Source of the DNA: Escherichia phage PLYYY01 | Sequence record: MZ911962.1 | DNA: 57,025 nt | Strand: one strand, 5' to 3' | Part shown: positions 18,045 to 45,376 of the stretch, piece after piece | Layout of the letters: every line of letters starts with the position of its first letter | Position numbering within the stretch: position 1 is the first letter of the stretch | The notes under the pieces: model-generated | The model's input: only the letters and a program-made list of their open reading frames with translations | Told to the model about the DNA's origin: nothing | The model's database searches: none | Translations under genes and position numbers: made by a program

Positions 18045-18943
18045 GGTTGCGGATACAAACTAAAGTCCGCAGTCTTAACCACATTTTCAAGCAATAGCAG
18101 GATATCAATATTGTACACTCCCGTTATTGTTCGGTCCTGTAATACGAAGCTTGCACCTTCTGCATCGTCATAATGAGTACGCGCCAGACCGTTTTCGATA
18201 TATACACGCGGTCGGTCTTCTGCGAAAGGTTTGATTTTATGCAAGCCTTCAAAAAGACCTGGATCAACAGGATGTGCATTGCATGGAACATTTAAAATAC
18301 GACGTATATCTGGCCACTCCGCATCAATAAGCTGTGTCCGCAACCAGCGACCTTCCGGATAATGGAACGTGACATTGTTCTTGCTGACCTGAATATGCGT
18401 CGGGTTAGCTTTAATGCGAAGTATTTCTTTGATTGCAACGGAAGGTATTATGCAGTCAATAGGAAACTGATTACCAAACCAGTATTCCGCAATGGTGACG
18501 TTATTTGTAGCAAATAGACTACCGTTATTAATCAGGATACCGCAAGCCCACGGACGGGAAGCATCGGAGCCTACAAACGGAGCAACGGACTTCACACCAT
18601 GAACGAAGCGAGCACCATCTATTTCGTACAAATCACCTTCAGGGAATACGTGCGGCGTTTCTTTGTCAATGCAGCGTATAGCAACACGAAACGGACCGGA
18701 CTTGATATTTAACTTACCGTTAGCCATCATTGTTAACTGTACGGTTTCATCGCAGTTCGAAATAGCTTTAATCATAGGCCCAGCTTCAGGCTTGCAATCA
18801 ATATTCAGCTCAATAGGGCTACCCAGTGCAATAACACCGTTAAAACCTTGCACTTGCCCGTCACGAATAAGAAAGCTGGTAAGCCCTTCTACCAGTTCTT
18901 TCTTTGCTACGGAGCCTTGAACAAATTTAAGAGCGTCTAACAT
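17990..18943 (-). CDS. hypothetical protein translationally coupled to the DNA polymerase (possible processivity factor)
   Basis: 317-aa ORF whose stop overlaps the polymerase start. Function is a guess from position only. Confidence 0.45.
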   Translation of the reverse strand: MLDALKFVQGSVAKKELVEGLTSFLIRDGQVQGFNGVIALGSPIELNIDCKPEAGPMIKAISNCDETVQLTMMANGKLNIKSGPFRVAIRCIDKETPHVFPEGDLYEIDGARFVHGVKSVAPFVGSDASRPWACGILINNGSLFATNNVTIAEYWFGNQFPIDCIIPSVAIKEILRIKANPTHIQVSKNNVTFHYPEGRWLRTQLIDAEWPDIRRILNVPCNAHPVDPGLFEGLHKIKPFAEDRPRVYIENGLARTHYDDAEGASFVLQDRTITGVYNIDILLLLENVVKTADFSLYPQPCAFFGENLRGVLIGERV

Positions 18944-19170
18944 TAGCGATCCTCGATTGCTCTAATTGTGGTTAAATCTAATTCACAGGTTGGAGGGTAT
19001 CCATAAAGTCCCATTTGTTTTCCTTGTGCATTAAACCATGTACCTGACGGATCCTGCCACTGCTTAGGTGTCTTGTGGAGGAATACTACTCTGTTTTCAC
19101 CGTAATAATTAATTCTTACGCCTGTGTGAGTATATTTACGTTTACCTTTTGGTCTTCTTAAGTTAGCCAT
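18943..19170 (-). CDS. hypothetical protein
   Basis: 75-aa basic ORF between the DpdA-like and polymerase-accessory genes. Confidence 0.35.
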   Translation of the reverse strand: MANLRRPKGKRKYTHTGVRINYYGENRVVFLHKTPKQWQDPSGTWFNAQGKQMGLYGYPPTCELDLTTIRAIEDR

Positions 19171-20090
19171 CAGAACAACTCCATTACACGATCACGGAAT
19201 GTGCCGTCATGGGTAGCGTTAATGTTTGCAGCAATTACACCATACGCCCATAAGTTGAAGGCGGCACGTGATTCATAGATTGTTGATAAACGTTCGTAAG
19301 TGAAACCGTTTTGCTCAAGGTATTTAAGGACAGCGTCCTGTTCAATTTCAGTTAATGTTGAAACATGCTTACCAAAATGGTGGCGGTCCGGTGACTTATC
19401 AGATACGCGCATTGGTCCCCACGGAGGAGTAACCACACTTCCAAACGCTGCCGCTTGAATCCAGGAGGATGAGTCACAGCTATACCACGGGTAACGCTCC
19501 ATAATGGTTGTGGACGTGATACCAAATGCATGAAGCTTAATCTTAGGACGACCGCTACCGTCGCAAATGTATTTGTCCCACATGCGGTCCAGCCAAGTTT
19601 TAAGCGTGTCCGTTGAACGTCCTACCATGCCCCCGATGGTGATATATTCGTAGTTCTTCATGTAATATTCAAGATAGCGGAAGTCCTCACCAAAGTGAAA
19701 GCACGGTAACGGTTTAGCACCTCGTGCTTCCATTTCAAGCTGGTTACGGTATGTCTGCAACGGATCACCGATACCATCGAGCACCGACGCCATTACTGCA
19801 CCATCTTCTACGCGAAGGATGTCTTTGTTGCGCTTAATGTATTCGCAGTATTCGACAATATCAATGTGAGCACCTAACGAGTGCGCGGAGAATGCACCAG
19901 AGTCGAGAAACACTTTAGCCCCATCCGCACGCATTTGATCAACATACTTCTGACGCCCAACGTAGTGGTAGGATTCCAAAATATGGGGCAGATTGCGCGT
20001 GATATTTTTCTCATGCTCAGACAGTTTTTCATAACGCTGCTGTCCAGGCATATATCCGTTCGTGTAAACTGCTGCCATAAAAACGTTCAT
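19170..20090 (-). CDS. dpdA: DpdA-like DNA 7-deazaguanine transglycosylase (tRNA-guanine transglycosylase family)
   Basis: 306-aa ORF next to folE/queD/queC/queE. The FLDSGAFS segment and length fit the TGT-like fold. Assignment rests mainly on operon context. Confidence 0.55.
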   Translation of the reverse strand: MNVFMAAVYTNGYMPGQQRYEKLSEHEKNITRNLPHILESYHYVGRQKYVDQMRADGAKVFLDSGAFSAHSLGAHIDIVEYCEYIKRNKDILRVEDGAVMASVLDGIGDPLQTYRNQLEMEARGAKPLPCFHFGEDFRYLEYYMKNYEYITIGGMVGRSTDTLKTWLDRMWDKYICDGSGRPKIKLHAFGITSTTIMERYPWYSCDSSSWIQAAAFGSVVTPPWGPMRVSDKSPDRHHFGKHVSTLTEIEQDAVLKYLEQNGFTYERLSTIYESRAAFNLWAYGVIAANINATHDGTFRDRVMELF

Positions 20091-20320
20091 TTTTGGAATG
20101 GTCCTCCAAACTGATCAATTAATTCTAAAGTACGCCAAGCTTCATTAAATGCTTCGTCCGCTCGATGTTTAGCGTCAATAAGCTGCTGCTTTAAAACATC
20201 TGTAGGCGCATCATTCTGTATTGCAGAGCAAGCATCCGCAGTACCTGCTTTAAGCTGGTAGAATGCTGTCTCTAAGATTAGTTGTCTTGACATATTTCCT
20301 CCAATGACTAAAAAGCCCAT
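20087..20320 (-). CDS. hypothetical protein
   Basis: 77-aa ORF between the dpdA-like gene and folE. Confidence 0.35.
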   Translation of the reverse strand: MGFLVIGGNMSRQLILETAFYQLKAGTADACSAIQNDAPTDVLKQQLIDAKHRADEAFNEAWRTLELIDQFGGPFQK

Positions 20321-20364
20321 ACCAGTATTATGACCGATATGGGCTTGATCTGTAAAGCTATCTA

Positions 20365-21006
20365 TTATTTACAAGCTTCAAGGAACTCCCGGCGCCATTC
20401 TTTACCAATATTGCTACCATGCTCCAGTTCTGTAGCGCCCCGGAAAGCTTTAGTAATGGTAGAGCTTCCGCATACCTGCTTAACCCCGCGCGATTCCATG
20501 CACATATGTTTAGCATCAATATAGACACAAACAGCTTTCGGGTCTAAATGCTCCTGGATAGCATCTGCAATCTGGTTAGTAAGACGTTCCTGAACTTGCA
20601 GTCGACGACTAAAAGCATCCACAACGCGAGACAGCTTACTAAGCCCAACGATCTTCCCATTGGGGACATAACCCACAACAGCACGCCCGATAATAGGAGC
20701 CATGTGATGCTCACAATGACTGTATACAGGAATATCACGGACAATGACCATTTCATCCGTACCTTCCGCACCATCTTCAAAGGTTTTAAACAATCCAGCG
20801 ATATCTACATCGTAACCGCTAAACCACGTTGCATAAGCTTTCGCTACACGCTCCGGAGTTTCCTCCAGCCCTGGTCGCAGAACCGCGCTAACTTCAATTT
20901 GGGATAGTAAAGCACGCACAGCGTTAGCAATACGGAATTGAACACCTTCACTATTAATACTATATTTAGACATGGTTTGCAGTTTCCTTGTTGTTAATGT
21001 GGTCAT
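20365..21006 (-). CDS. folE: GTP cyclohydrolase I
   Basis: 213-aa ORF with the FolE signature region SHCEHHMAPIIG and downstream GKIVGLSKLSRVVD. Confidence 0.8.
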   Translation of the reverse strand: MTTLTTRKLQTMSKYSINSEGVQFRIANAVRALLSQIEVSAVLRPGLEETPERVAKAYATWFSGYDVDIAGLFKTFEDGAEGTDEMVIVRDIPVYSHCEHHMAPIIGRAVVGYVPNGKIVGLSKLSRVVDAFSRRLQVQERLTNQIADAIQEHLDPKAVCVYIDAKHMCMESRGVKQVCGSSTITKAFRGATELEHGSNIGKEWRREFLEACK

Positions 21007-21007
21007 A

Positions 21008-21544
21008 TTACAGGCTATAGTTTACGTGACATTTCGAAGTTTCTTCGATGGTGCATTCTACAAGTTGAACGCCATGTTCGTCAAGCAGTAGCGGACCAAT
21101 TACTTCAACCATATAGGCAGCTAGGTTTTCCGCAGTTGGGTTGAACGGCAAAGATACCAGTGAATCGTTAAAAGCTTTAAGATCTTCATCCCCTTCACCG
21201 AAAGTAGGCCAACCGCGTTCAGATTGAGTATCCGTTTCAATACAACATTGCAGTCCGTTGATCAACATATCCTTTTCCCAATGCAGAAACTTATGATCCC
21301 AGTTATCTTCCAGCCACTGGCAGAGCGTAGTTTTAACCACACTAAAGTCAATCACGCGCCCAACGCTGTCCAGACCGTCCTCAATCAGCTTTCCTCGTGT
21401 CACTACTTTTCCGCATCCATGCTTCGGAGCAACCTTAAAGTGAAACTTATAGTTGTGACCGTGGAGGTGGCGACATTTGCTTTCGTGACCTACAACACGA
21501 TGTCCGGCGCAAATTTCATGTGAACGAATTACTGTATAGCTCAT
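21008..21544 (-). CDS. queD: 6-carboxy-5,6,7,8-tetrahydropterin synthase
   Basis: 178-aa ORF with CxxxHGH motif (CRHLHGHNY) and catalytic-region similarity to the QueD/PTPS family. Confidence 0.75.
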   Translation of the reverse strand: MSYTVIRSHEICAGHRVVGHESKCRHLHGHNYKFHFKVAPKHGCGKVVTRGKLIEDGLDSVGRVIDFSVVKTTLCQWLEDNWDHKFLHWEKDMLINGLQCCIETDTQSERGWPTFGEGDEDLKAFNDSLVSLPFNPTAENLAAYMVEVIGPLLLDEHGVQLVECTIEETSKCHVNYSL

Positions 21545-22137
21545 TTTAATACCTCTTTAGACTGTTCAATTTCTAATGCACGCTGTGCGGATGCAATAAT
21601 GTCTTTCAAGTCTTCTACCAGACTTTTATGACCGCGTTCGCCTGGCTGCAACGCCTTTTTAATCAAATGTTGTAAAGCTGGGTTAGTTGTTTTCCAAGCT
21701 TCTAAGACATCATACACGTCCACGATGCATTTTACAACATTGCCGTTTTGATCTTTACCATAAATAATTTTCTGATATTTATTCATGGGAATTTTAGATG
21801 GTTCATATTTCGTAAAAACTGCGGTTTTATCAATTCTCCAGTCGGGCAAATTTGCTTCAATAGATTGTTTGACGTAATCATCTGCAACGATATATCGCCA
21901 GGCTATAATATCTTGAACTTTATAAGGGCTATTTTCATCCATAGCTGAACGCCCTTCTATAGCCCAATCCCATCCATGTAATAGATTCTTAACGTGTGTG
22001 CCGTTGCGCAAACGAACTTCAAACTTCTCATTACGAAGAAAAATAGGCATTCCTTTACCGTCGTGCTGGTGCCAAATTTTATTAAGATTATCTTTCATTT
22101 TACGCTCTCGCTGTACGTGAATGAACTTCGTAAACAA
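21541..22137 (-). CDS. hypothetical protein embedded in the deazaguanine cluster
   Basis: 198-aa ORF (alternative start at Met14, 22098) between queD and the transporter gene. No recognisable motif. Confidence 0.45.
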   Translation of the reverse strand: MFTKFIHVQRERKMKDNLNKIWHQHDGKGMPIFLRNEKFEVRLRNGTHVKNLLHGWDWAIEGRSAMDENSPYKVQDIIAWRYIVADDYVKQSIEANLPDWRIDKTAVFTKYEPSKIPMNKYQKIIYGKDQNGNVVKCIVDVYDVLEAWKTTNPALQHLIKKALQPGERGHKSLVEDLKDIIASAQRALEIEQSKEVLK

Positions 22138-22579
22138 CCCAAAGGATGGCAGATGCTGTGAACTTACTTAAGCTCATTGCTACCATTGATCCCGGATTAA
22201 CAATGCCTATAATACTTAAGAACACAATGGAATCAATTGGTACAGCTACCAAAGAGCTGATAAATACACGTTGATGAAACGGCTTCTTAGTAATCGTGTA
22301 TACCGCATAGTCCGCAAACTCGCTAAGAGCAAAGGATGCAACGGATGCAACTACAACAGCAGGATCCCCAAATACCCAGCTAAGGATGCAACCGACAATC
22401 ATTGCAGGGATGACGCCTTTGCCAGCGTTACGCTGTGCGTAATCACGCAGCACAAAGATAATACCTACAAAGAAAGCCATCATTGGGACTACACCGAGTG
22501 GTGTATTAAGCATCGGAAGGTAGGAAAAGCCCAGGTTTACGAATGTAATTGCAGCCAGATAAGCAACGATAAATTTCAT
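22100..22579 (-). CDS. YhhQ-like queuosine-precursor transporter (membrane protein)
   Basis: Start at the internal ATG 22579 preceded by GGAGA. Multi-pass hydrophobic protein in the que cluster. Confidence 0.55.
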   Translation of the reverse strand: MKFIVAYLAAITFVNLGFSYLPMLNTPLGVVPMMAFFVGIIFVLRDYAQRNAGKGVIPAMIVGCILSWVFGDPAVVVASVASFALSEFADYAVYTITKKPFHQRVFISSLVAVPIDSIVFLSIIGIVNPGSMVAMSLSKFTASAILWVVYEVHSRTARA

Positions 22580-22699
22580 ACTTTTGTTCTCCAGTTTTAA
22601 CAGCGTTATTCGCTGGTTGTTGGGTTTAAAAGCTTTAGTAGTATAGTTGGGTTCCCGCACCCTAAACAATGCGCTAGCGGTGCGGTTTTCGCGGTAAGA

Positions 22700-23407
22700 T
22701 CAAGCTTTGCTAATAAATTCGCTGTACCCTTTAGCACGCAGTTTGCACGCAGGACATTCACCGCAACCATATCCCCAGTCATGCAGAGTGCGGCGGACGC
22801 CATTATAGCAAGTATGGGACTGTTCAATTACTGTGGTTAAGAAGCCAACCTTATCAGCGAGTTCAAACGTTTCCGCTTTGTTTAAACGCATAAGCGGTGT
22901 AACAAAATGGATATCTGTTTCATATCCAACGTTTAATGTAGCTTCAAGCAGGTCTACAAACTGCTGGCGGCAATCCGGATAACCGCTATAGTCTGTTTCA
23001 CAAACGCCTGTAACCACATATCTGGCGCCAACTTTCTGCGCGTAGGCGTGCGCGGTAGTCAGGAAAAGCGCATTACGGTTTGGCACAAAGCTTGCCGGAA
23101 GGTTGTTGTGCTGTTCGTGATGTTCGTTAACATCACCTTCGTTCCCGATTAAAGCGCTATTGCCAATCTGTTTCAAAGCAGGTAATTCAAAGACAACAAA
23201 TGGGACATCGTGCTCTTTACAAATTTGATCAGCACAAGCCAGCTCAATGTTATGACGTTGACCGTATGCAAAACCAATAGCGTAGACCTTATCATAGTTA
23301 TTAAGTGCAAGACCTAAACAGGTCACGCTGTCCTGGCCGCCAGACAGGACCACAACGGCGGAGTTATGATTTTTTACAGGGAATACCAGTTTATCTAATT
23401 TATTCAT
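22700..23407 (-). CDS. queC: 7-cyano-7-deazaguanine synthase
   Basis: Start at internal ATG 23407. PP-loop motif VLSGGQDS and C-terminal Cys cluster CYNG...CGECPAC. No amidotransferase extension. Confidence 0.85.
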   Translation of the reverse strand: MNKLDKLVFPVKNHNSAVVVLSGGQDSVTCLGLALNNYDKVYAIGFAYGQRHNIELACADQICKEHDVPFVVFELPALKQIGNSALIGNEGDVNEHHEQHNNLPASFVPNRNALFLTTAHAYAQKVGARYVVTGVCETDYSGYPDCRQQFVDLLEATLNVGYETDIHFVTPLMRLNKAETFELADKVGFLTTVIEQSHTCYNGVRRTLHDWGYGCGECPACKLRAKGYSEFISKA

Positions 23408-23408
23408 T

Positions 23409-23597
23409 TTAGAAACCTTTAAGGCTAATATTAAGATTAACGACCACTTGTTCAACTACATCATCAGATGTCATCTGACGTTTATGAATTTCAAGCTCCG
23501 AATGTATGTTCTTGGATGCAGCACGACAGATGGCGTCATTCAGCTCGTCTTGTAAACGTTGCATCTTCTGCATAAGAATCACAGTCTCTTCATTCAT
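23409..23597 (-). CDS. hypothetical small protein (tandem paralog 1)
   Basis: 62-aa ORF; similar in pattern to the adjacent 23590-23802 product (LNDAICRAASKNIHSELEIH vs LNSAIAHATMQGVHVELDIN). Confidence 0.4.
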   Translation of the reverse strand: MNEETVILMQKMQRLQDELNDAICRAASKNIHSELEIHKRQMTSDDVVEQVVVNLNISLKGF

Positions 23598-23802
23598 CTT
23601 CTACACCTTTAATATCACAAGGATTGATTGTTACATTTGACATCACAATCGGATGATTGCGTGCTCCGATTGTACTAACGTGGTTAATATCTAATTCAAC
23701 ATGCACACCCTGCATAGTAGCGTGGGCAATTGCAGAATTAAGTTTTTCTACCAGCTCAGTGATCATTTCCTGATGCTGTTTCGCTTCTTCCAAAGTGATC
23801 AT
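23590..23802 (-). CDS. hypothetical small protein (tandem paralog 2)
   Basis: 70-aa ORF; see paralog relation to 23409-23597. Confidence 0.4.
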   Translation of the reverse strand: MITLEEAKQHQEMITELVEKLNSAIAHATMQGVHVELDINHVSTIGARNHPIVMSNVTINPCDIKGVEDE

Positions 23803-24057
23803 TTAAACCTCCGTTAATGTTTGAGTCCAGTCTAAGCCTTCAAGGTCTACATCAGCTATTTCATCGTACTCGTAAGCTCCCGGATCTGCTGGCAGCCATC
23901 TATCAAATCGATGGCTGAGTTCTGGAGGAATTGCTTCATACCCCCAAACCTTCCCATCCTTGTCGGCTGCCAGATAATCAACTCGACTTGGAACGGTTAA
24001 AGTGACACCACAAAAATTAACATCTTTAGTATGCACAACCTGACTTAATACACGCAT
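23803..24057 (-). CDS. hypothetical small protein (paralog of 45074-45376 product)
   Basis: 84-aa ORF sharing AADKDGKVWGYEA...VDLEGLDWTQTLTEV with AVDADGKVHCYDA...VDLEGMDWRDTLMEI. Confidence 0.45.
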   Translation of the reverse strand: MRVLSQVVHTKDVNFCGVTLTVPSRVDYLAADKDGKVWGYEAIPPELSHRFDRWLPADPGAYEYDEIADVDLEGLDWTQTLTEV

Positions 24058-24764
24058 TATTCCACCCCGATATATTTGTGAACCTGAAGCTGCAACGTGT
24101 ACCCGTGTTTCATACAGCTTTTGACAACCGCTTGGATGTTACTGTGGTTAAGATCTTCATCCTGCTCGTCCATTGGCTGCAAATATATCTTACCCTTGAA
24201 CCCCTTCGGAGGTCTAGCGATAAATGGCGTAGCTTGATGATCTAATGCTTGAAGCGGTAAACCGTCTTCCACGTTTACACAGCACGCTTTAAGCACATAT
24301 TTAAATGCATTTGCACGGTACAGCACAGAAGGATGAATTTTTGAAGTCTTAGGACTGCATACAATTACAGGTAACTGGGAAAAGTTCTTAGGTAAAGGCA
24401 TAGACCCGTTAGTTTCAATCTGTACAAGATACCCGCGCGATAACAGTTGTTCAATAAACGGGTTAATTTGCTGACGGAACGGTTCACCCCCAGTAATAAC
24501 CACAAGTGATGTGCTATTGCCTGATTCCAGCTTACGGCTTTCGATTAAACGCATGATATCAACAATGTGGTAAAGAGAACGACCAACAGTATAATCAGTA
24601 TCACAGCCCGGACATTGCAGGTTACACCCGGCAAGACGCACAAATACAGCAGGTTGACCGCAGAATGGACCTTCACCCTGAATGGTAGAGAATACCGAAT
24701 GCACGTCTAAATACATATCGTTTTCTTTAGAACGAGACTCGGGAGCTTGTTGATTAATATTCAT
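24057..24764 (-). CDS. queE: 7-carboxy-7-deazaguanine synthase (radical SAM)
   Basis: 235-aa ORF with radical-SAM Cys motif CNLQCPGC near the N-terminus, adjacent to queC. Confidence 0.8.
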   Translation of the reverse strand: MNINQQAPESRSKENDMYLDVHSVFSTIQGEGPFCGQPAVFVRLAGCNLQCPGCDTDYTVGRSLYHIVDIMRLIESRKLESGNSTSLVVITGGEPFRQQINPFIEQLLSRGYLVQIETNGSMPLPKNFSQLPVIVCSPKTSKIHPSVLYRANAFKYVLKACCVNVEDGLPLQALDHQATPFIARPPKGFKGKIYLQPMDEQDEDLNHSNIQAVVKSCMKHGYTLQLQVHKYIGVE

Positions 24765-24833
24765 CTTAAATCCTCTCGTGAAAAAGAAAGCGCCTCATTG
24801 GGCGCCTTCATTATAACGTGATATGTTTTGATA

Positions 24834-25646
24834 TTACAAGCCGTTCAGGGCTTCCGGTACTGGTACAGGTACGCGACCAGTCACACCATTAAATTTCTTC
24901 CAGCGTGCATACTGGGTTTTAACGGTATCTTCGTTCAGACCATGTCGACCAGCCAGGTTCAGAACATAAGAGATCGGAGCAGGCTGACCCAGCGTAGCGC
25001 TAATCTGGTCCATCAGAGCCCAGGCACGACCGCAGGAAGTTTCCGGTTGCGGACGGCGAACACCGTTCTGTTCAGGCATACGATTAGCTTCTTTTTCTTT
25101 CTCGCGGAGCTCTTTAGCGCGTGCTTTTTCCGCTTCTTTTTCTGCCTGTTTTGCAGCACGGATCTTGTCTTTGAAGCCTTTAATAGTAGCTTCCAGACCA
25201 TCCACCAGACCCTGGGCAGAAGTTACAGCACCGGACAGGTCTTCACCTTTAGACTTCTTAACGACAGCTTTCAGCTCTTTCAGAGCTTCTTTAATGGTCT
25301 TCAGGTTTGCAGATCCCTGAGTTTCTGCTTCCGTGATCTGTTCAACAGTGCTTTCGTCGGTGACGGTAGCCAAAGAGTTTTTCAGGATTTCAGCAGCGTT
25401 AGCAATCGCATTGAATTTGTTTTCCGCTTCAGTGCGGATTTCAGCTTGTTTCTTTTCAGCGGCAGCTTTTTTCTCTGCTTCTTTTTTCTCTTTTGCTACG
25501 CGTGCAGCTTCAGCGGCTGCGGCTTTCTTAGCTTCTGCATCATTCACAGTAGCTTCTTTCTTTGCAGGTTTAGCAGATTTTGCAGCGGCGGCAGCAGCGG
25601 CTGCGGCAGCAGCTTTTTTGTCTTCAATGTTGCTCATTCTCTTCAC
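24834..25646 (-). CDS. hypothetical Lys/Ala/Glu-rich protein with a C-terminal domain shared with the 41235-41909 product
   Basis: 270-aa ORF with a poly-Ala run and histone-H1-like AKK/EKK repeats. C-terminal segment ends YARWKKFNG. Confidence 0.5.
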   Translation of the reverse strand: MKRMSNIEDKKAAAAAAAAAAAKSAKPAKKEATVNDAEAKKAAAAEAARVAKEKKEAEKKAAAEKKQAEIRTEAENKFNAIANAAEILKNSLATVTDESTVEQITEAETQGSANLKTIKEALKELKAVVKKSKGEDLSGAVTSAQGLVDGLEATIKGFKDKIRAAKQAEKEAEKARAKELREKEKEANRMPEQNGVRRPQPETSCGRAWALMDQISATLGQPAPISYVLNLAGRHGLNEDTVKTQYARWKKFNGVTGRVPVPVPEALNGL

Positions 25647-30946: not shown

Positions 30947-31867
30947 TTAATCTAAAGCCTGATCAGTTTCGTCGCGGAAATGCATAAAGTTAGCAAAACG
31001 CGGTTTATCTTTAACGCCATGAGGGAAGTGTTTATATGAAATAGTCCGACCTTTAATCTTGTCAGGGTTATTCCAATAATAAATCTTATCCTCTTGCGTT
31101 AATTTACCAGGACTAACGTTGATTGTATTGCCCGTCTTAACGTCTTTACAAACAAGCGTCCCGATCATACCGTTAGGAACTTTATTTTCCTGATGTGAAG
31201 ATCGTGTAGTCCTTCCCAGCTCGTTAACGGTAGCTTCATTAAGATTAGTTTCACCCTCAATAATATCGAGGACAATAGCATCTTCCTGAATAAAGCGTTT
31301 AATACGAAGGTATCCGCCTTCTCGAACTGTACCGCGCCCATGTTTGTAAGGCTTGTTTGGATCACGGATAATAATACCTTCATAACCCATATCAAGCCAG
31401 ATGTTTTCCCAGTAAAGCAGCTCTTGCAAAGACTTAACCACGTACATCGGCACAACTTGCAGATCGAGCAGTTCGCCTTTCGCGTGCTGTGTGGTTATAA
31501 AATCTTTCATCATGTTGTAGCGTGCTTCATAGCCCAGGTCTGCAACACTTTCAGCGCACAGATCAAAGATGTGCCATTTCAGGAACGGTTCGCCTTCAAT
31601 TGTGTTTACCGCACTGGTTGTTTTACGGCACAGGTCGGGATCTGTTTCAACTCCGGCCGCAAGCTCACCGTCATAGCCCATGTACTGGGGACCACTGAAA
31701 ATCGCGCTTGTATGGCGGTTTTTAAACAGCTTTAAACTGCGCCCTACTATTTGCCCATCCGGATTTAAACCGCGTACACCGTCGATTTTAGGCCGTATAC
31801 AGCATGGAAACTTAATCTTTTCTTCAACCGCGTCAGTTGCTAAATGTGGTTTAAATGCCATTTGCAC
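30947..31867 (-). CDS. ATP-dependent DNA ligase
   Basis: 306-aa ORF with adenylation motif I KIDGVR and downstream nucleotidyltransferase motifs. Confidence 0.85.
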   Translation of the reverse strand: MQMAFKPHLATDAVEEKIKFPCCIRPKIDGVRGLNPDGQIVGRSLKLFKNRHTSAIFSGPQYMGYDGELAAGVETDPDLCRKTTSAVNTIEGEPFLKWHIFDLCAESVADLGYEARYNMMKDFITTQHAKGELLDLQVVPMYVVKSLQELLYWENIWLDMGYEGIIIRDPNKPYKHGRGTVREGGYLRIKRFIQEDAIVLDIIEGETNLNEATVNELGRTTRSSHQENKVPNGMIGTLVCKDVKTGNTINVSPGKLTQEDKIYYWNNPDKIKGRTISYKHFPHGVKDKPRFANFMHFRDETDQALD

Positions 31868-32513
31868 CTCTATTCATGAAAGAATGTACGAATTTTAATT
31901 TACGAATACGCTCATTACGTTCTGCAACGGCTTTATCGTCTTCTGAACGAGCAGCCAAACAAGCTTTCTCTTTCATACGGGTATTACGACGTAAATGCCC
32001 GCTACCCTTTTTAGGTCTGTTTTCCTTTTTCTTTGCTTCGGAAATAAGCTCTTTGCATTCCTGCAAACGGATCTTGCTTCTTTCCAATCGCATAGCAGAA
32101 CGCGCACGTTCATCACAAAATCTTTGAGCTTTGCTACGCTGGTCCTGATTACTTGTATGACCTTTAACGTGGCGAAACTCAATAGTAAGGTTATATTTAC
32201 GAAGTTGATCGTTCAACCATTTGAAAGCTGTACCTTCCTGTTCGCTTTTCCAGCTTGCCTCTTTATACACTTTAATAGCTGTTGAACAATCTGTTTGCAC
32301 AATTAAATGATCACCCGATTGAATTAAATTAGCTTTCAATCCTTCCCAAATGACATTACAAATTGCCATTGTTTCAGCTGCATTGTTATCCGGAGCACCG
32401 CGTAATGGACCACCGTTAGCATTATTTCCACGGTTACAAACTACCCATCCACCATATCCCGCGGCTTTTGTATTTGGGCAAAAACTTGCATCAGAAATAA
32501 TTGTTACTCTCAT
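31851..32513 (-). CDS. ribonuclease H
   Basis: 220-aa ORF with RNase H-like N-terminal domain (ISDASF, GYGGW, VQTDCSTA) and a basic C-terminal tail. Confidence 0.65.
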   Translation of the reverse strand: MRVTIISDASFCPNTKAAGYGGWVVCNRGNNANGGPLRGAPDNNAAETMAICNVIWEGLKANLIQSGDHLIVQTDCSTAIKVYKEASWKSEQEGTAFKWLNDQLRKYNLTIEFRHVKGHTSNQDQRSKAQRFCDERARSAMRLERSKIRLQECKELISEAKKKENRPKKGSGHLRRNTRMKEKACLAARSEDDKAVAERNERIRKLKFVHSFMNRGANGI

Positions 32514-32557
32514 TGTTTTTCCTTAATAAAAAGGGGATCGAAAGACCCCCTTGTAAG

Positions 32558-32746
32558 TTATGCAGGAATAGATTCTTCCGGTTCTTCAGGGATCACGATT
32601 TCAATCTCTTCTTCATTTTGGAAGGTTAGACGGAAACCATCTCCTGGGCGCCCGAAAGCAAAGGTAAGGGTTATCGTATTATCCTGCTCGTAATGACAGA
32701 TACTTTCTACTTTCATTTCGTTACCGTAAAAGTCACGGTAAATCAT
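32558..32746 (-). CDS. hypothetical protein
   Basis: 62-aa acidic ORF. Confidence 0.3.
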   Translation of the reverse strand: MIYRDFYGNEMKVESICHYEQDNTITLTFAFGRPGDGFRLTFQNEEEIEIVIPEEPEESIPA

Positions 32747-45073: not shown

Positions 45074-45376
45074 ATGCTTTATTTAGGAATGGATGAAACT
45101 GGACACGAAATTCCTTCTGTTAACAAGGAGACGCAAGTATTTACCGACTATTATGGGTTTGCTGTCCCTGTTGAGCCCTGGGCTAACTTTATCGCTGTAG
45201 ACGCAGACGGTAAAGTACATTGTTATGACGCTAAACCTTCTTGCTATGAATCTGGTAAGCAATGGATGCTTAGCGTATACGGTTTGCATGTGCGCTACTG
45301 CGGTGAAGTTGACCTTGAAGGTATGGACTGGCGCGATACTCTAATGGAAATTAAAGAATATAGGCTTAACCCATGA
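45074..45376 (+). CDS. hypothetical protein (paralog of 23803-24057 product)
   Basis: 100-aa ORF; shared C-terminal motif VDLEGMDWRDTLMEI. Confidence 0.45.
   Translation: MLYLGMDETGHEIPSVNKETQVFTDYYGFAVPVEPWANFIAVDADGKVHCYDAKPSCYESGKQWMLSVYGLHVRYCGEVDLEGMDWRDTLMEIKEYRLNP

Follow-up and report, generated by a model that had tools for sequence, protein, structure and literature searches.

The probable 7-deazaguanine DNA-modification cluster of Escherichia phage PLYYY01, a Seuratvirus, and the small conserved genes within it

Introduction

The DNA of Escherichia phage CAjan contains the modified nucleoside dPreQ0, in which preQ0 takes the place of guanine. It is the sole 7-deazaguanine detected there, at about 71,000 per 10^6 nucleotides (nt), or about 32% of G (PMC6884629). 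Published work with liquid chromatography and tandem mass spectrometry (LC-MS/MS), nanopore sequencing and CRISPR knock-outs puts the share at about 23-32% of G, depending on the method (PMC6884629, PMC7544227), and nanopore reads place it in GA and GGC contexts (PMC7544227). Deletion of dpdA from CAjan abolishes dPreQ0 wholly and renders the DNA sensitive to restriction (PMC6884629), while deletion of folE or queC lowers dPreQ0 about 12-fold and deletion of yhhQ leaves it unchanged (PMC7544227). The gene cluster has been regarded as a genus signature since 2017 (PMC5758909), and the Seuratviruses of the BASEL set withstand type I and type II restriction-modification systems in vivo (PMC8594841). 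Here we describe the corresponding cluster of Escherichia phage PLYYY01, at positions 19170-24764 of a 57,025-nt stretch of its DNA (MZ911962.1; the whole stretch is called the window), together with the small genes interspersed in it.

A complete preQ0 pathway beside dpdA

The genes from 19170 to 24764 form an unbroken run on the minus strand, encoding DpdA, FolE, QueD, a YhhQ-like protein, QueC and QueE, with five unassigned open reading frames (ORFs) interspersed. The folE, queD, queC and queE genes lie within 5 kb of dpdA and on the same strand. Very probably, this cluster is the form, of the dPreQ0 type, that the 7-deazaguanine DNA-modification module of the Queuovirinae takes in Seuratviruses. 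Its named genes are listed here, with lengths in amino acids (aa) and expectation values as E.

19170..20090, minus strand: DpdA, a DpdA1-type DNA guanine transglycosylase of 306 aa; phrog_887, E 2.3e-96
20365..21006, minus strand: FolE, GTP cyclohydrolase I; PF01227, E 1.6e-63; TIGR00063, 195.9 bits, over cut-off
21008..21544, minus strand: QueD, 6-carboxytetrahydropterin synthase; PF01242, E 4.6e-22; CRHLHGH at residue 24
22100..22579, minus strand: YhhQ-like (Vut_1 or queuosine-precursor transporter-like) membrane protein of 159 aa; profile matches under cut-off
22700..23407, minus strand: QueC, preQ0 synthase of 235 aa, without a glutamine amidotransferase (Gat) domain; PF06508, E 1.3e-74; TIGR00364, 242 bits, over cut-off
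24057..24764, minus strand: QueE, radical S-adenosylmethionine (radical-SAM) 7-carboxy-7-deazaguanine synthase; phrog_2076, E 1.7e-68; CNLQCPGC (CX3CX2C) at residue 47

The four-enzyme preQ0 pathway (FolE, QueD, QueE, QueC) is complete, with its signature motifs present. An earlier note, written from the letters of the sequence, had named contiguous minus-strand genes in this place, with CxxxHGH in QueD, SGGQDS and a cysteine cluster in QueC, and CxxxCxxC in QueE, and had read them as a FolE-QueD-QueE-QueC cluster with DpdA, of the 9g and CAjan type. Every ORF and every motif was located, and family matches, motifs and near-identity to CAjan bear that reading out. The matches to PF01227, PF01242 and PF06508 all exceed the gathering score. 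Several NCBIfam QueE models match QueE at E 1e-20 to 1e-28 (TIGR04322 at E 8.7e-28), and radical-SAM matches occur as well, all under their cut-offs; the protein is 99% identical to the QueE of CAjan. QueC is 96-97% identical to its CAjan counterpart and 96-99% across relatives, with SGGQDS at residue 22 and CGECPAC at residue 215. The QueC domain alone spans the 235-aa protein, and the amidotransferase domain is absent, in contrast to the 471-aa Gat-QueC of phage JenK1. Because QueC lacks the Gat domain, dPreQ0-type DNA is predicted, as had been proposed from the letters; the near-identity to CAjan, whose DNA carries dPreQ0 only, supports the proposal.

DpdA is 100% identical to the proteins of KS_W4 and SeppeHuegi and 99.7% identical to that of CAjan over 306 aa. 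All nine active-site residues proposed for the CAjan enzyme (PMC7544227) are present: D63, S64, F67, D105, H132, G153, G154, F189 and D206. In an alignment of 10 phage DpdAs, reaching down to 25% identity, D63, S64, H132 and D206 are invariant and D105 is nearly so. The matching PHROG is labelled 'queuine tRNA-ribosyltransferase'. The Pfam profile of the tRNA-guanine transglycosylases (TGT, PF01702) matches neither this protein nor nine other diverse phage DpdAs. The earlier note had called the 306-aa protein TGT-family-like and had offered profile searches against DpdA/TGT as the test of this; at HMMER level they do not put the protein in Pfam TGT. We assign the protein as DpdA because it is near-identical to the genetically validated CAjan enzyme and its catalytic residues are conserved, not on the strength of HMMER profiles. 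Its placement in the TGT superfamily would rest on the literature, in the form of a homology model and HHpred searches of orthologs, and on identity to CAjan; the CAjan model was built with SWISS-MODEL on the arcTGT structures 1IQ8/1IT8 at 15% identity (PMC7544227).

Since the cluster genes are near-identical to CAjan genes with published data, the dPreQ0 prediction is both supported and already known. In the window, GA accounts for 24.3% of G and GGC for 4.2%, together 28.5%; the corresponding shares in CAjan are 23.96% and 4.28% (PMC10484667).

Relatives and named systems

PLYYY01 is a Seuratvirus (Queuovirinae). The cluster DNA is 92-97% identical to that of the Seuratviruses KS_W4, RCIP0359, GottfriedDienst (Bas21), Seurat, Greed and CAjan; outside the cluster, too, the window matches this genus, as a mosaic. 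The best relative shifts along the window, being KS_W4 in the cluster, CSP1 at 30-55 kb and CAjan at 1-19 kb. The window as a whole looks like a complete or near-complete mosaic Seuratvirus genome, circularly permuted with respect to CAjan. Across its full length we found no tRNA genes and no Rfam matches. The presence and absence of genes was tabulated for nine Seuratviruses together with EC151, JenK1, Vid5 and Iggy, and ratios of nonsynonymous to synonymous substitution rates (dN/dS) compare the window ORFs with seven Seuratvirus relatives.

CAjan, Seurat, KS_W4 and the BASEL phages Bas21-25 have the gene order of the window, with DpdA 99.7-100%, QueE 99%, QueC 96-99% and YhhQ 97-99% identical. 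These CAjan-type relatives also share the 70-, 62-, 68/77- and 75-aa ORFs described below, and a 120-nt spacer is 99% identical. The differences are mosaic only. The window and KS_W4 have an 84-aa gene that is missing from CAjan and GottfriedDienst. In CAjan an additional gene, of 107 aa, separates queD from the homolog of a 198-aa protein of the window, and the QueD and 198-aa proteins of the window are 77% and 56% identical, respectively, to those of CAjan.

The Nonagviruses 9g and JenK1 resemble the window in the order queE-(gat-)queC-queD-folE-dpdA beside the clamp and polymerase genes, in a DpdA that is 69% identical and in a C-terminal domain of the 198-aa protein (the C-domain), which recurs in JenK1 gp35. 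They differ in the Gat-QueC fusion, which leads to archaeosine (dG+) and not preQ0, and in having no YhhQ and no homologs of the 62-, 70- and 77-aa proteins. The 471-aa Gat-QueC of JenK1 is annotated 'L-glutamine-D-fructose-6-phosphate aminotransferase'. The same core order, with DpdA 60-72% identical, is kept in Pseudomonas phage Iggy, in Pantoea phage Vid5 and in Enterobacter phage EC151. Vid5 shares a homolog of the 62/70-aa proteins, gp39, and EC151 shares homologs of YhhQ and of the 68/77-aa protein as well as a protein with the C-domain. At syntenic positions the small ORFs of these phages differ. In Iggy the modification is confined to GA (PMC10484667), whereas CAjan modifies GA and GGC. 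Bacterial Dpd systems (DpdA/DpdB/DpdC) and the archaeal and bacterial TGTs perform a like base exchange with two catalytic aspartates (PMC7544227). Their similarity to phage DpdA lies under every curated threshold, the substrate of phage DpdA is double-stranded phage DNA, and no partner of the DpdB/DpdC type was identified in the window locus or in the annotation of GottfriedDienst.

The YhhQ-like gene and its upstream spacer

The YhhQ-like protein matches Vut_1 at E 4.5e-5 (24.3 bits against a cut-off of 27.2) and TIGR00697 at E 3.3e-4 (20.5 bits against 50.95). It is 97-99% identical to the 'preQ0 transporter' of CAjan and Bas21, its dN/dS is 0.00-0.05, and the gene is kept in all nine Seuratviruses examined. 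Upstream of it, next to queC, lies a non-coding element.

22580..22699, minus strand: intergenic spacer of 120 nt with a GC-rich hairpin, 5' of the yhhQ-like gene

The spacer is 95.8-100% identical in 33 Seuratvirus records, in a setting where the synonymous divergence (dS) of the flanking genes is 0.15-0.5, and its hairpin (about 22655-22685) persists in the divergent STP-SP5 and yong3. Bacterial genes of the yhhQ type are commonly controlled by preQ1 riboswitches. A preQ1/preQ0 riboswitch in the spacer was considered and rejected: Rfam returned none at the gathering score, none at E<=1 over the cluster and none at E<=10 over a 161-nt region. Variation in the spacer is too low for a covariation test, with one or two compensatory pairs. 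The hairpin may be terminator-like and accompanied by a promoter and a 5' untranslated region. This near-invariant spacer is a candidate for a regulatory element.

Small genes within the cluster

Five further ORFs are interspersed among the enzyme genes.

20087..20320, minus strand: small helical protein of 68/77 aa, probably 68 aa from the ATG at 20293; phrog_20065
21541..22137, minus strand: two-domain protein of 198 aa, likely 185 aa from the ATG at 22098; phrog_23361
23409..23597, minus strand: 62-aa paralog in a small alpha+beta family; BLASTP against the 70-aa ORF, E 7e-5
23590..23802, minus strand: small alpha+beta protein of 70 aa, between queE and queC; in all nine Seuratviruses examined
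23803..24057, minus strand: variable accessory gene of 84 aa; phrog_1972

All unassigned ORFs of the cluster are real genes under purifying selection (dN/dS 0.03-0.34). Start codons were refined from the annotation of relatives and from gene junctions. The plus strand of the cluster region has no credible genes; its ORFs are short, antisense to conserved genes and unannotated in relatives.

The 62- and 70-aa proteins had been read as a tandem paralog pair at 23409-23802, and pairwise BLASTP (E 7e-5), an end-to-end alignment and an invariant L-N agree with this. The 70-aa protein is the more constrained, with dN/dS of 0.03-0.05; the 62-aa protein has 0.08-0.11 and is absent from KS_A3, STP-SP5 and yong3. 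A homolog in Vid5, gp39, occupies the same place between queE and gat-queC. The family is tiny, with 27 clusters in a search of 5.8 billion proteins and eight representatives in an exhaustive HMMER search of 1.84 billion proteins. One member, 36% identical, lies among the early small genes of Nonanavirus AVIO78A, where it adjoins an RdgC-like exonuclease gene with no deazaguanine genes nearby. An AlphaFold2 (AF2) model of the 70-aa protein has a helix at residues 4-30 followed by two strands, at moderate confidence (predicted local distance difference test, pLDDT, of 65), and a fold search with this model found no match in the PDB. In CAjan (AJT60529), RefSeq and PHROGs (phrog_26258), homologs bear the name 'radical SAM domain-containing protein'. 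This label is probably annotation spill-over from the adjoining queE, as the 70-aa protein has no cysteine motif and no Pfam match.

The stop codon of the 68/77-aa gene overlaps the start of dpdA by 4 nt, and its dN/dS is 0.11-0.18. The gene occurs in 21 phage records, each time immediately 5' of dpdA. One of these records is EC151 (MW464860), in which an unannotated ORF at this place encodes a protein 55% identical to it. The gene is absent from KS_A3, SHIN8, STP-SP5 and yong3, and in the first three of these a 185-aa endonuclease VII-like ORF (phrog_1035) takes its position. The DpdA of those three phages is only 93-95% identical, not 99.7-100%. A homing-endonuclease-type replacement with co-conversion would fit.

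The 84-aa gene is missing from CAjan, GottfriedDienst, SHIN8 and yong3, and Greed and STP-SP5 have alleles 46-48% identical. Homologs occur in jumbo phages and Klebsiella siphophages, which are unrelated phages. A paralog lies at 45146-45352 on the plus strand of the window (71 aa aligned at 32% identity, tblastn E 3e-7), so that the genome carries more than one copy of this small gene family. CAjan, KS_A3 and SHIN8 have an extra small gene between queD and the homolog of the 198-aa gene.

The 198-aa protein falls into two parts. Its N-terminal half is variable and restricted to Seuratviruses, and the yong3 protein lacks it. The C-domain, of about 75 aa, follows the pattern NKY..VDVYDV..NPALQHLIKKALQPGERGHK..DL.DI..SA.RA and is very strongly conserved: 24 of its positions are invariant, among them those of NKY, DVYD, N-x-A-L-x-H, KKAL and G-x-R-G-H-K, and these invariant residues are charged ones (K, R, H, D). 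Each of the nine Seuratviruses examined encodes a C-domain protein, and the dN/dS of the 198-aa protein is 0.04-0.34. Five further PHROGs match the protein, at its C-terminus only. A profile check of 21541-22137 had been suggested; the gene is real but belongs to no Pfam family and yields PHROG matches only. No Pfam family was found for the C-domain with the whole protein, the isolated domain or 46 relatives, and no fold match in the PDB. The AF2 model of the 198-aa protein has a pLDDT of 70, and its C-domain consists of a beta-hairpin and three helices.

The domain is widespread. It appears in 703 phage records and 972 protein clusters, within a variety of architectures, and most of the phages concerned have no deazaguanine genes. 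The latter include Jersey-like, Kagunavirus-type and Vibrio phages, and Aeromonas phages in which it sits inside proteins annotated as DNA ligase. On metagenomic contigs, C-domain genes adjoin genes for phosphoribosyl pyrophosphate (PRPP) synthetase and nicotinamide phosphoribosyltransferase (NAMPT), or modules encoding RecT, single-stranded DNA-binding protein (SSB) and helicase. A C-domain protein is also found inside the cluster, at other positions, in Nonagvirus (JenK1 gp35) and EC151; in EC151 the carrier is a 250-aa hypothetical protein between queC and yhhQ.

A published CAjan mutant bears on this protein. The 'yhhQ' deletion is listed as 550 bp from 31,850 (PMC7544227 Table 1), while the methods mention deletions of 150-350 bp. 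In CAjan (KP064094) yhhQ lies at 32084-32563 and the homolog of the 198-aa gene (AJT60525) at 31513-32082. Taking the extent of the deletion from Table 1 and these coordinates, we infer that it would probably also remove about the first 77 codons of that homolog, with both the level and the pattern of modification as in the wild type. The authors do not comment on the overlap (PMC7544227).

Gene packing and flanks

Downstream of dpdA, outside the limits of the cluster as first noted, lies one more small gene.

18943..19170, minus strand: small protein of 75 aa with a basic N-terminus (RRPKGKRK); phrog_38388; its start overlaps the dpdA stop

This gene, 3' of dpdA, is present in nine of nine Seuratviruses, at 80-100% identity in eight and 31% in yong3. 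Judging by gene spacing and by terminator and promoter predictions, the minus-strand genes appear to form three packed units: queE-84-70-62-queC, yhhQ-198-queD-folE, and 68/77-dpdA-75-clamp-polymerase. Junctions inside the units range from -8 to +1 nt, and the gaps between units are 71 and 120 nt. The annotation of Seurat has terminators at matching positions, including the spot 5' of queE.

At 24786-24839 on the minus strand, between queE and a gene for a 270-aa protein, a promoter-like TTGTAA-18-TATAAT comes first and then a strong hairpin of terminator type, with its T-run. The 270-aa protein (24834-25646, minus strand), directly 5' of queE, is rich in Ala and Lys and contains a poly-Ala run. 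It is kept at the same position in Seuratvirus, Nonagvirus, Vid5 and EC151, and by its C-terminus only in Iggy. The name 'transcriptional activator FtrA domain', which it has in some records, finds no Pfam support here.

Discussion

The cluster of PLYYY01 is an already well-characterised CAjan/Seurat-type system, with dPreQ0 chemistry that is already known. FolE would convert GTP to 7,8-dihydroneopterin triphosphate (H2NTP), QueD would turn this into 6-carboxytetrahydropterin (CPH4), the radical-SAM enzyme QueE would yield 7-carboxy-7-deazaguanine (CDG) and QueC preQ0. DpdA, a TGT-related transglycosylase, would act once the phage DNA has been replicated, swapping guanine in the double strand for preQ0. 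If CAjan is a guide, the exchange would fall mostly at GA and GGC, dPreQ0 would make up roughly a quarter of G, and many restriction enzymes of types I and II would be expected to be kept from the DNA. A different role, tRNA modification through the queuosine pathway, is implied by the original annotation, 'queuosine tRNA-ribosyltransferase', and by the labels on database homologs. We give this almost no credence: 9g dpdA fails to complement an E. coli tgt deletion yet inserts preQ0 into DNA, and deletion of dpdA strips all dPreQ0 from CAjan DNA (PMC6884629), so that the idea is already refuted for near-identical genes. Nor are queF, queA or queG annotated in the 50 kb listed of the close relative GottfriedDienst.

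Our own analysis establishes which genes these are, together with their motifs, conservation and distribution among relatives; published work on near-identical genes establishes the chemistry, the sequence contexts, the dependence on single genes and the protection from restriction. We regard the interspersed ORFs as genuine small phage genes and not pathway enzymes, with roles that we infer. The 84-, 62- and 77-aa genes are accessory and variable and can be dispensed with, being absent or replaced in several Seuratviruses, and the 70-aa and C-domain proteins are most likely early or middle phage proteins acting on the host or on nucleotide metabolism; if they did act on modification, they would modulate rather than execute it. 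On balance the findings speak against a requirement for the small ORFs: the 77-, 62- and 84-aa genes are absent from several Seuratviruses and the 84-aa, 70-aa and C-domain families occur off the pathway. The earlier suggestion that these ORFs serve as modification or specificity factors is accordingly disfavored by absences, by off-pathway homologs and by the data on 9g DpdA. Several points nonetheless weigh against our overall interpretation. For DpdA, the NCBIfam bacterial model NF041059 matches weakly and locally, at E 2e-3 and 17 bits where the cut-off is 200, and neither a single-sequence phmmer search nor a 10-sequence profile linked it to any TGT structure in the PDB. The chemistry would be carried over from near-identical CAjan genes and not drawn from PLYYY01 DNA. 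For the small genes, the constraint on the 70-aa protein equals that on the enzymes, and its place between queE and (gat-)queC is kept in Seuratviruses and Vid5; two genera show the 68/77-aa gene coupled to dpdA; and Seuratvirus, Nonagvirus and EC151 each have a C-domain protein within the cluster. On such grounds at least one of the conserved small proteins (70-aa, 68/77-aa, C-domain) could be an accessory factor of the deazaguanine module, which might tune DpdA efficiency or the GGC motif, shield preQ0 from host QueF or Tgt, or assist QueE or QueC. The presence of the 70-aa gene in nine of nine Seuratviruses at low dN/dS speaks for this, as do Vid5 gp39, the overlap of the 68/77-aa gene with dpdA, a pairing seen again in EC151, whose DpdA is only 60% identical, and C-domain proteins at differing positions in three Queuovirinae lineages. 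Iggy, with modification confined to GA, has no detectable homologs of these ORFs (PMC10484667 for the motifs), and in E. coli 9g DpdA by itself does insert preQ0 into plasmids, but modification reaches only about 0.3% (PMC6884629). Yet 9g DpdA with Gat-QueC suffices in E. coli for dG+ at about 18% of G (PMC6884629), and Nonagviruses do without the 70- and 77-aa genes. The 77-aa gene is swapped for the endonuclease VII-like ORF in KS_A3, SHIN8 and STP-SP5, the 70-aa homolog of Nonanavirus has no deazaguanine genes nearby, and the C-domain turns up in over 700 phage records, most of which lack the pathway. Modification is moreover unaffected in the CAjan yhhQ mutant, in which the homolog of the 198-aa protein is probably truncated (judging from PMC7544227 Table 1), and no fold or family match points to a mechanism. 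We think an accessory role improbable. Slightly less likely still is its fuller form, in which the 70-aa, the C-domain (NKY..VDVYDV..NPALQH..GERGHK) and possibly the 68-aa proteins are accessory components that might set GGC specificity, efficiency or the retention of preQ0 against the host.

The C-domain may alternatively be a distant relative of DUF3310, the Pfam family of the C-terminus of the T7 gp1.7 nucleotide kinase, and act on (d)GMP or another nucleotide to feed or balance the guanine nucleotide pool. A Foldseek search against BFVD returned 'Nucleotide kinase [Klebsiella phage P560]' with an E of 0.03 and a probability of 1.0 and a second nucleotide kinase at E 0.25, and phrog_25460 is weakly matched both by T7 gp1.7 (E 1e-3) and by the C-domain protein JenK1 gp35 (E 8e-3). 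The charged invariant residues and the neighborhood of PRPP synthetase and NAMPT genes or replication modules are in keeping with such a role. Nevertheless, Pfam DUF3310 (PF11753) misses the 198-aa protein and all 46 family members, alignment of the family profiles with hhalign gives a probability of 0.15% (E 0.39), and the P560 match has a root-mean-square deviation of 10 A over 103 columns, with no match in the PDB. We consider this kinship improbable, about as much so as an accessory role in the module.

Returning to the cluster as a dPreQ0-type Seuratvirus module, 7-deazaguanine DNA modification is an established anti-restriction strategy, and the window adds one Seuratvirus genome to it without a change in principle. 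The interest that remains lies with the spacer upstream of the yhhQ-like gene, with the 70-aa protein and with the very widespread, highly conserved phage domain of about 75 aa.

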